Shown in pieces: positions 42,953 through 43,801 of a stretch of DNA of 50,140 nucleotides; the first letter of the stretch is position 1; each line of letters opens with the position of its first letter. A program made the translations under genes and the position numbers. Location of the stretch: IMG/VR virus record IMGVR_UViG_2522572023_000006; one strand, given 5' to 3'. Origin of the DNA: a virus (Duplodnaviria; Heunggongvirae; Uroviricota; Caudoviricetes). A model generated the notes under the pieces. That model ran no database searches. It saw only the letters and a program-made list of their open reading frames with translations, and was not told the origin of the DNA.

Positions 42953-43591
42953 ATGGAATTTAAAGATTTACCTCCTTCAATCCAGGAGATTGCAGCACAC
43001 ACACTTCGTCATCGTCTGAACGAACTTGAATTGGAATCGGTAACGAAAAAAGACACTGATAATATGGCTCGTAATGTGCGCGATGCGTTTACCGGATTGT
43101 ATTTCTGTGCGTCTATAAATAAACACGACTCAGAGAGTGTGGCAAATAAAATTGCAGAAACGACAGCGCAAAACATCAATACGAAACCAACGGAAGAAGA
43201 AATTGATCAGTTTGCTCATGATGCTGGTTTAAAAAACAAGAAAGAAAAATCGCCATATGCGGGGAACATGTTTGTTTATGACAATCTCATCAGAATTCGT
43301 GGCGAAATTCCGGCGGAATACCTGGCAAGAGTCCATCAGGCATTGCTTAAAAATTTGGAAACAGAATTATTTGATGGCAACACTAACGGTTTCTTCATGG
43401 TATCAGGCCTTGATAAAGACTGGGATGCAGAAAAACGCTGGAATGTTGCTACATGGTTATTCAGTAACAGAGCCGCTGCACTGGAAGCTTCGGCATGTAT
43501 TTGCGGCCTGTTCTTAACAGACCACAAATATAATCTGGATGTGTACAGTTATATTTACGCTGAACACGGTCCACTCTGGATTGACTGGTAA
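42953..43591 (+). CDS. Hypothetical 212-aa protein of unknown function (early-left arm)
   Basis: Start MEFKDLPPSIQ with RBS GAGG; no TM segment and no motif I recognise; directly abuts a convergent 69-aa gene. Confidence 0.45.
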   Translation: MEFKDLPPSIQEIAAHTLRHRLNELELESVTKKDTDNMARNVRDAFTGLYFCASINKHDSESVANKIAETTAQNINTKPTEEEIDQFAHDAGLKNKKEKSPYAGNMFVYDNLIRIRGEIPAEYLARVHQALLKNLETELFDGNTNGFFMVSGLDKDWDAEKRWNVATWLFSNRAAALEASACICGLFLTDHKYNLDVYSYIYAEHGPLWIDW

Positions 43592-43801
43592 TTATAAGGA
43601 AACACCAGCAGGGCCGCGGCGACCAACAGAACGATTAAAATCAATAATGCCATTATAAAGGACATTATTTAATTTATCGTCGAATGCTGATTCTGTGAGC
43701 CTCAACTCTGAATGAGTTTTTAATAACCCTGATTGCCTGAGTTGATTTACCAGGCATTCAATCTGTTTTTCAATAAGCGGATTTCTTTTTTTGTTTGGCA
43801 T
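43592..43801 (-). CDS. Hypothetical 69-aa protein, opposite strand to the early-left operon
   Basis: MPNKKRNPLIEKQIECLVNQLRQSG...; RBS GGAGG; its 3' end touches the 3' end of the 212-aa gene. Confidence 0.4.
   Translation of the reverse strand: MPNKKRNPLIEKQIECLVNQLRQSGLLKTHSELRLTESAFDDKLNNVLYNGIIDFNRSVGRRGPAGVSL

Follow-up and report, generated by a model that had tools for sequence, protein, structure and literature searches.

We analysed a 50,140-nt stretch of DNA, IMG/VR virus record IMGVR_UViG_2522572023_000006 (hereafter the window), in which a gene for a 212-residue protein on the plus strand (the large gene) and a gene for a 69-residue protein on the minus strand (the small gene) converge between a ydfA-like gene and the small RNA (sRNA) DicF. 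The region matches, at 100% identity, a portion of a lambdoid prophage in the chromosome of Escherichia coli O145:H28 RM12761, which is integrated beside rspB, the Qin site. The list of open reading frames (ORFs), the sequence itself and the Prokaryotic Genome Annotation Pipeline (PGAP) all bear out the original prediction that the two genes meet tail to tail without a gap and that the small gene has a GGAGG ribosome-binding site of its own. The two stop codons adjoin exactly (TAA at 43589-43591, TTA at 43592-43594), leaving zero intergenic bases, and the GGAGG at 43807-43811 on the minus strand is the Shine-Dalgarno sequence (SD) of the small gene, 5 nt ahead of its ATG at 43801. The large gene starts at an ATG preceded by GAGG; an alternative ATG at 42941 would give 216 residues, but the homologues all begin MEFKDLP. 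On RM12761, RefSeq/PGAP calls exactly these two coding sequences, both as ‘hypothetical protein’. We describe below the evidence that the pair is an uncharacterised, well-conserved two-gene module, outside any described family.

Comparison of alleles indicates that both genes are under purifying selection. Between the window allele and alleles approximately 85% identical to it, the small gene shows a ratio of nonsynonymous to synonymous substitution (dN/dS) of 0.19-0.27 when read as annotated; the five remaining frames, all of which contain stops, give 0.45-2.9. For the C-terminal domain of the large gene the ratio is 0.16-0.22. In other prophage types the small protein has full-length relatives at 46-54% identity, and the C-terminal domain of the large protein has homologues at 33-40% identity. 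Two elements of the small protein stand out, a conserved SGLLK motif and the tail RRGPAGVxL at its C-terminus; its distant relatives keep QL..SGLLK, F..KL and the tail as RR.PAG..L. The RRGPAG tail is kept at the protein level, while the DNA there is not conserved. The 69-residue ORF is short, lies on the opposite strand, and has neither a consensus promoter nor a family match, and might on these grounds be a chance or misannotated frame beside a single real gene, that for the 212-residue protein. This is effectively excluded by the in-frame constraint, the full-length homologues with common motifs, the tail preserved in protein and not in DNA, and the strong, conserved SD.

The window-type small gene has a run of seven A just after its start (43783-43792, codons 3-6; ATG CCA AAC AAA AAA AGA). 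Eight of the 74 IMG/VR loci that carry the small gene (L062-L069) have six A instead, which truncates the small protein beside an intact 212-residue gene. The same frameshift occurs in one complete genome, NZ_AP042500.1 (annotated ‘frameshifted’; L175 1201-1409), again with the large gene intact, and the L006-type allele has no A-run. These six-A alleles may represent real inactivation, slippage-prone phase variation or homopolymer sequencing error. Truncated large genes are about as frequent as frameshifted small genes.

We then analysed the occurrence of the pair. At least 80% of the large gene is found in 597 of 5,426 complete E. coli genomes, and at least 80% of the small gene also in 597 (approximately 11%), with both genes in one contiguous stretch in 572. 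Carriers include the Shiga-toxin-producing lineages O157:H7 Sakai (prophage Sp11, ECs_2211/2212), O145, O111 and O103. In all 74 IMG/VR loci with the small gene, a gene encoding the C-terminal domain of the large protein (C-domain) converges on it and abuts it. Across the IMG/VR loci the identities of the small gene and the C-domain fall together, from 100/99% to 85/82%, while that of the N-terminal domain (N-domain) varies independently (45-100%).

The arrangement persists at much greater distances. Seven lineages were compared (the window, L006, L173, L008, L169/170, L171/172 and L009), among which identity is 46-86% for the small protein and 33-83% for the C-domain. In all seven the genes lie tail to tail, abutting or overlapping by 11-53 nt, and each Salmonella locus with a divergent C-domain protein has a homologous small gene opposite the 3′ end of its large gene. 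The layout spans three immunity backbones (the dicA/ydfA type, P2-like int-C-cox and a Mu-c-like repressor) and two unrelated N-terminal modules. In no locus examined was the C-domain found without the small gene, or the small gene without the C-domain. The proteins are oppositely charged in every lineage, the large one at -10 to -12 and the small one at +3.5 to +4.6. Because the layout is constant across lineages, backbones and N-terminal fusions, the conserved unit is the C-domain together with the small gene, and not the whole 212-residue protein. On these alignments the small gene and the C-domain are co-inherited and co-diverging. The pair family appears, on the genomes searched, to be confined to Escherichia and Salmonella, and no relative of the small protein was found among the GTDB species representatives. 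The original prediction was to be given up if both proteins proved clearly homologous to housekeeping phage functions, or if the pair had no phenotype and were not conserved across prophages; the pair is conserved, and the searches described below found no such homology. The comparison of related prophages that it had called for revealed both this co-inheritance and a site of exchange, described below.

A feature that goes beyond the original prediction is that the large protein is modular, with a widespread N-domain that carries swappable C-termini. Four further families (phrog_1363, 9419, 6937 and 33007) match only residues 1-50/75 of the 212-residue protein. When 1.84 billion representatives were searched exhaustively using HMMER, approximately 40 clusters emerged that have only residues 1-55/90 in common and then continue into unrelated C-termini; in the same search, relatives of the C-domain were limited to two Salmonella clusters. 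The N-domain is present in Stx2 phages as a 131-residue protein, and the C-domain occurs elsewhere only in Salmonella proteins of 206-286 residues (P0177, P0188, P0232-P0237). In one lineage (P0177) an XRE helix-turn-helix (HTH; Pfam HTH_3) is inserted in the large protein. The N-terminal module of the Salmonella proteins was considered as a relative of the MEFKDLP domain and rejected (hhalign probability 1.7%), despite a short resemblance, EITDIPxSI. We note also that a protein of 5,212 residues (P0186) matches residues 17-71 of the N-region in nine separate places (E = 1.2e-8), which may be due to coiled-coil or low-complexity character or to a repeat derived from the N-domain.

The surroundings of the pair are listed in Table 1. 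As originally predicted, and as confirmed by Pfam, Rfam and PGAP, it lies between the ydfA-like gene and the DicF/DicB cluster. The repressor, DUF1391, DicF, DicB and DUF1482 follow in this order on one strand (Pfam, Rfam, PGAP and alignment with K-12), which identifies the dicBF-type early-left operon of Qin/Rac-like lambdoid prophages, and the large gene lies sense to it. Approximately 340 nt of structured, conserved DicF precursor separate the small gene from DicF, after which come dicB, a DUF1482 gene, an 820-residue exonuclease, xis and int. The 139-residue protein in the repressor position has no Pfam HTH match, is ‘hypothetical’ in PGAP, and resembles DicA only in its C-terminal 50 residues (NCBIfam NF007257, 24.5 bits, far under the cut-off). 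The 820-residue ‘exonuclease’ (44832-47294; the name is that given by PGAP) is long, acidic and of low complexity, and Salmonella relatives of the locus have separate Rv2179c-like and Exonuc_VIII genes instead.

Table 1. Features of the early-left region of the window.
Feature	Position	Strand	Remarks
Repressor-position gene, 139 aa	42104-42523	+	phrog_5736 ‘transcriptional regulator’
Operator-like palindrome TACCCATGGGTA	42566-42577		Between repressor gene and ydfA
Operator-like palindrome TACCTATGGGTA	42591-42602		Between repressor gene and ydfA
ydfA-like DUF1391 gene	42789-42941	+	Pfam 4.6e-29; first gene of the early-left operon
Large gene, 212 aa	42953-43591	+	WP_000394546.1; phrog_2151; acidic, isoelectric point (pI) 5.2, net charge -10
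N-terminal helical domain, aa 1-55	42953-43117	+	MEFKDLP...NVRDAFTGLY; helices 8-24 and 32-55 predicted by AlphaFold2
C-terminal alpha/beta domain, aa 98-212	43244-43588	+	Always travels with the small gene
Small gene, 69 aa	43592-43801	-	WP_001133037.1; phrog_4274; basic, pI 9.7
Structured leader	43808-43889	-	Three predicted hairpins upstream of the small gene
Hairpin 3, CUCCAU/AUGGAG	43808-43837	-	Invariant in 7 lineages; covers the SD
Hairpin 2	43838-43860	-	Stems differ by lineage, pairing kept in all
Hairpin 1, CCGGA..TCCGG	43867-43889	-	Invariant in 7 lineages
Weak -10-like hexamer TAAACT	43896-43901	-	Putative, from alignment; 6 nt (43890-43895) upstream of hairpin 1
DicF sRNA	44140-44191	+	Rfam 71.5 bits (threshold 48 bits)
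dicB	Downstream of DicF	+	DicB, Pfam 2.8e-36

The interval that holds the pair is a site of cassette exchange, as seen in an alignment of six prophages and in a survey of 80 loci located through the N-domain. The variable block begins inside the N-domain gene; its right end is the SD/ATG of the opposite-strand gene or, in loci lacking such a gene, the start of the hairpin region. Seven cassette types were distinguished: A, that of the window (plus-strand gene of 212 aa, minus-strand gene of 69 aa); B (112 and 64 aa); C (186 and 80 aa, the latter with a zinc-ribbon-like CPxC..CPxH); D (135 and 77 aa), which is also found in the isolated phage Evi; D′ (201 and 63 aa); and E (124 aa) and F (147 aa), which have no minus-strand gene. 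The small-gene SD is common to types A, B and C and is therefore taken as the right cassette boundary. The N-domain thus precedes at least five unrelated opposite-strand small genes, each in its own PHROG of unknown function. In types D and D′ the plus-strand proteins are alike to about residue 128 and different thereafter, as is the whole minus-strand gene, with breakpoints at about residue 128 and at the SD. In K-12 Qin the interval between ydfA and DicF is filled by ydfB and ydfC, and there is no opposite-strand gene. The original suggestion of a cargo site accordingly stands as far as location is concerned, in that cargo is exchanged between prophages and Rac sieB lies in the same slot; nothing found here shows defence, kil or anti-defence activity.

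Two of the other cassettes differ from their annotation. PGAP treats the type B plus-strand gene (L003 2501-2839) as a pseudogene, ‘incomplete, missing C-terminus’, owing to its likeness to the beginning of the 212-residue family. The same intact 112-residue ORF is found in 17 of the 18 type B viral loci (L117-L134; 119 residues in L131) and a convergent 64-residue partner in 17 of 18, and the type B protein is probably a genuine shorter member of the family. The 80-residue minus-strand protein of type C (L137, L141-L143, L004 3018-3260) has a weak match to Pfam Zn_ribbon_TFIIB (E = 0.022), and PGAP over-extends it to 135 residues in L004.

Neither protein belongs to a known family, as had been predicted. 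Searches of Pfam (E ≤ 0.1), NCBIfam and PADLOC (PADLOC-DB v2.0.0, E ≤ 1) gave no match for either, and sequence-profile searches of the Protein Data Bank (PDB) with both proteins returned only noise (E ≥ 0.5). Full-length hidden Markov model matches were obtained only to PHROGs: phrog_2151 over residues 1-212 of the large protein (E = 2.5e-147) and phrog_4274 over residues 1-69 of the small one (E = 1.2e-51), both labelled ‘unknown function’ and both also matched by the Salmonella relatives. In databases the proteins are named ‘hypothetical’ or occasionally, for the 212-residue protein, ‘Ybl81’, and a literature search found no mention of ECs2211/2212, of the WP or NP accessions, or of ‘Ybl81’. 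Family searches with the other cassette partners and the Salmonella relatives gave nothing useful, the PADLOC matches for other cassette types being to generic HTH only.

Structures were predicted using AlphaFold2, from alignments made before the divergent Salmonella homologues turned up. With 31 sequences for the large protein and 15 for the small one, the mean predicted local distance difference test (pLDDT) values were 62.8 and 61.8. The low-confidence model of the large protein has four N-terminal helices, an acidic linker and a β-β-α-β-α-β C-terminal domain, and that of the small protein, also of low confidence, is a two-helix hairpin with a disordered tail. The models are too poor for a fold to be assigned to either protein, and Foldseek against BFVD gave no match at E ≤ 1e-3. 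The profile and structure searches that had been recommended have thus been made and found no family, the structural half being limited by the quality of the models. The residues of the C-domain that are invariant across the deep lineages are P, M, Y, L, I, G, W, FDG..NG.F and A.W.FS...AA.E. No obvious catalytic set was seen among them in this comparison, and the pattern suggests a binding domain more than an enzyme.

Upstream of the small gene lies a structured leader of three predicted hairpins, and the location of the SD inside a conserved hairpin suggests that translation of the small gene may be controlled. The same DNA is also part of the plus-strand DicF precursor and is present in K-12, which has no small gene; conservation of the hairpins may therefore reflect either strand. 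At the position of the TAAACT hexamer, several Salmonella lineages have TGnTATAnn, 7 nt upstream of hairpin 1. In P2-like Salmonella prophages the structured region upstream of DicF (window 43838-44139; L009 5104-5378; L008 4864-5098) is 81% identical over approximately 200 nt, and is followed by a short sequence that is not DicF and that ends in a terminator-like hairpin (e.g., L009 at about 5385-5430). This may be an undescribed processed sRNA analogous to DicF; a search of Rfam with the L009 sequence beyond the pair was negative even at E ≤ 1. In L011 the structured region is followed instead by a C4 antisense RNA (RF01695, 74 bits) and a ‘Derepression’ gene.

Both genes should lie within a long early transcript of the plus strand. 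The dicBF transcript of K-12 starts upstream of ydfA and runs to dicF, no internal promoter having been found, and DicF is processed from this transcript (PMC10448788). The homologous transcript in the window must therefore include the 212-residue gene and read antisense through the small gene, and neither the sequence nor a terminator scan reveals a terminator between the convergent genes. The operator-like sequence TACCCATGGGTA is a perfect 12-bp palindrome with two near copies: TACCTATGGGTA and a third at 42033-42044, between the cro-like and repressor genes, so that the copies flank the 139-residue repressor gene. They are probably the left and right operators (OL and OR), and 42566-42602 is probably the site of the early-left promoter that drives the 212-residue gene. 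A promoter-like pair, TTTACT-17-TATCCT, lies between and over the two left palindromes. The terminator scan had marked the left inverted repeat as ‘terminator-like’.

We tentatively propose, as the best of several readings though less likely than not to be right, that the two genes form a cognate, reciprocally expressed pair, in which a small protein made by the lysogen is neutralised on induction by the 212-residue protein and by antisense transcription. The C-domain and the 69-residue protein would then constitute a cognate accessory module carried by temperate phages of Escherichia and Salmonella. The small protein would be made from the repressed prophage, via its own weak promoter and structured leader opposite the early-left operon, as a prophage-expressed slot cargo like Rac sieB, and would most plausibly interfere with infecting phages. 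Derepression would activate the early-left promoter ahead of ydfA and the acidic 212-residue protein would be made, which would bind the small protein through its C-domain and neutralise it. RNA polymerase heading to dicF/dicB would read antisense through the small gene and shut it off. Neutralisation and antisense shut-off would together leave the phage unhampered by its own cargo, as in the logic of SieB, Esc and sas. We infer the timing of expression, the physical binding, the roles of effector and antidote, and any anti-phage activity. In favour of the proposal we count the co-inheritance and co-divergence of the two genes, a layout kept on different backbones, purifying selection on both, their opposite charges, the exchange of opposite-strand cargo in the slot, the place of sieB in Rac, the antisense course of the early transcript and the SD within a hairpin. 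The HTH insertion in one large-protein lineage fits this proposal, such domains being common in antidote and regulator proteins.

A number of observations weigh against the proposal. A scan for sigma-70 consensus promoters had no usable result for the small gene: its sole match overlaps the start codon, and TAAACT was not reported. The original suggestion that the opposite-strand gene is independently regulated therefore stays conjectural. PADLOC, Pfam, NCBIfam and the PDB offer no homology that would point to a function, and the AlphaFold2 confidence (pLDDT 62.8 and 61.8) is low. Frameshifts hit either gene beside an intact partner at similar rates and thus give no clue to polarity. The parallel with SieB is imperfect, since SieB is a hydrophobic membrane protein of approximately 160-190 residues, whereas the 69-residue protein is soluble and basic, with a grand average of hydropathy of -0.53 and no hydrophobic segment. 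Homology between the leader of Rac sieB and that of the window was considered and rejected, only the DicF/KilS terminator region being common to the two. Moreover, the strict linkage could be merely physical, given that no DNA lies between the genes, and the minus-strand genes may be independent cargo, given the partner swap between types D and D′ and the lack of a minus-strand gene in types E and F.

Those last points lead to a different account, which we regard as rather unlikely: that the minus-strand gene is a stand-alone ‘moron’ in a recombination hot spot beside the structured DicF precursor, the 212-residue protein is an unrelated early accessory protein, and the two are held together by the lack of intergenic DNA. 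Minus-strand genes are indeed exchanged as modules, the breakpoints falling at their own SD and just past their 3′ end; the body of the D/D′ plus-strand protein is kept beside different minus-strand genes, types E and F do without one, and in Rac the slot is taken by one cargo gene only, sieB. What this account does not explain is that recombination has replaced the N-terminal module on the left side of the C-domain and the right-hand flanks without splitting the pair, in seven lineages that have diverged to 33% (C-domain) and 46% (small protein) and on three backbones, or that C-domain and small gene are never found apart in the loci examined.

The remaining alternatives accept a functional link and assign the roles differently. 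The polarity may be reversed: the 212-residue protein would be a host-directed effector, like DicB, DicF and Kil, harmful when it leaks, and the lysogen-made small protein would inhibit it, while convergent transcription would damp leaky early-left expression, making a toxin–antitoxin (TA)-like safety catch. We consider this unlikely. The dicBF operon is indeed toxic and under layered control (PMC10448788). The strict linkage and co-divergence of the pair and the convergent layout without a terminator between the genes fit a safety catch, and the combination of an unvarying N-domain, variable C-termini and a small gene alongside recalls effector/immunity polymorphism. Yet the C-domain has neither a conserved catalytic motif nor homology to toxins, small genes are frameshifted beside intact large genes, and the HTH of one large-protein lineage looks more like part of an antidote or regulator. 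In classical type II pairs, furthermore, the toxin is usually the basic protein and the antidote the acidic one, which is the reverse of what this polarity would need. A regulatory role is very unlikely, with the small protein binding nucleic acid to control the DicF precursor, its own leader or early-left transcription and the 212-residue protein modulating it. The basic small protein, with its two predicted helices and arginine-rich RRGPAG tail, its constant position next to the conserved three-hairpin region, and the HTH in one large-protein lineage would suit such a role, but that region also occurs without the small gene (in K-12 and in types E and F) and with unrelated small genes, and the protein matches no DNA- or RNA-binding family.

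The pair is a good candidate for a new phage-versus-phage or self-protection module in a slot for exclusion cargo. It is present in approximately 11% of complete E. coli genomes and yet is without annotation anywhere. If the small gene encodes an exclusion function with an early antidote, as we tentatively propose, the pair would add a new family pair to prophage defence with self-immunity. It would also explain why so many unrelated opposite-strand genes occupy the sieB slot, and would supply a genomic rule for finding more cargo: opposite the early-left operon, beside the DicF/KilS precursor. If the genes are independent, they are merely two more hypothetical prophage genes. The pair would also matter for the biology of dicF/dicB in enterohaemorrhagic E. 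coli, where the operon transcript must cross the convergent small gene. More generally, Qin/Rac-like and some P2-like prophages of Escherichia and Salmonella might carry an undescribed class of reciprocally expressed cognate pairs, in which a swappable C-domain recognises a convergent small protein expressed by the lysogen. Such pairs would form a polymorphic repertoire of exclusion plus self-immunity (or of effector and immunity) in the sieB slot, under antisense control from the early promoter, with the window pair as the best-conserved example. We regard this generalisation as doubtful.

The nearest known arrangement is that of the SieB/Esc/sas superinfection-exclusion system, which occurs in P22, lambda and Rac. 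In K-12 Rac, the order is racR, ydaG, ydaF (DUF1391), sieB, the gene for the sRNA KilS and that for the FtsZ inhibitor KilR; sieB alone of these is on the opposite strand to the operon, converging on ydaF and overlapping it by 4 nt. Rac sieB thus has the slot and orientation of the 69-residue gene, except that in the window the 212-residue gene lies in between. SieB is an exclusion protein expressed from the prophage; the phage protein Esc allows its action to be bypassed, and the antisense RNA sas modulates it (PMC12197685). The likeness to what we propose lies in an early-left prophage cargo that is countered by a phage protein and an antisense RNA, although Esc is an in-frame product of sieB and not of a separate convergent gene. 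A tblastn search with Rac SieB found nothing in the window, and Pfam assigned neither protein of the pair to PF14163 (SieB). Rac KilS and its downstream flank (L176 4851-4954) are 84% identical over 105 nt to the DicF terminator region of the window (44153-44251), from which KilS and DicF, which precede kilR and dicB respectively, appear to be variants of one type of sRNA locus. The interval between ydfA and the DicF precursor is occupied in the homologous dicBF operon of K-12 Qin by ydfB and ydfC, which are unrelated in sequence and both on the operon strand; K-12 has neither an N-domain gene nor an opposite-strand gene there.

The pair resembles a type II TA system, of which RelBE, carried on Qin, is one: its members are small, presumably cognate partners, one of them acidic and the other basic, in tight linkage, prophage-borne and narrowly distributed. 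It differs in that type II genes are co-directional, co-transcribed and autoregulated, whereas this pair is convergent in all seven lineages, no homology to any toxin or antitoxin family was found in Pfam, NCBIfam or PADLOC, and neither protein is known to be toxic. Another parallel is offered by the polymorphic toxins CdiA-CT/CdiI and Rhs-CT/RhsI, which have a constant N-terminal part, exchangeable C-terminal parts, a different small neighbouring gene for each, and breakpoints at the domain junction. The constant N-region with exchangeable C-termini is seen here in approximately 40 clusters and seven cassette types; five of the seven types have a small partner gene, types E and F have none, and D and D′ are alike in the body and differ in the partner. 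However, the known toxins are large and secreted, with an immunity gene downstream on the same strand, whereas these proteins are of 110-290 residues, cytoplasmic and convergent with their partners, and some cassettes lack a C-domain or a partner. No toxin or secretion/delivery domain was found in any variant, HTH_3 in P0177 being the sole Pfam domain.

Convergent antisense control is familiar from phage switches such as lambda oop/cII and P22 sar, and, like these and the Rac type I TA system RalR/RalA (known from its RefSeq record), which is also in the early-left arm, the pair would have an opposite-strand transcript overlapping an early gene. In those systems the antisense partners are non-coding RNAs, whereas the antisense unit of the window encodes a protein that the allele comparisons place under purifying selection. 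The pair is best filed as a variant of the accessory or self-immunity cassettes of prophages.

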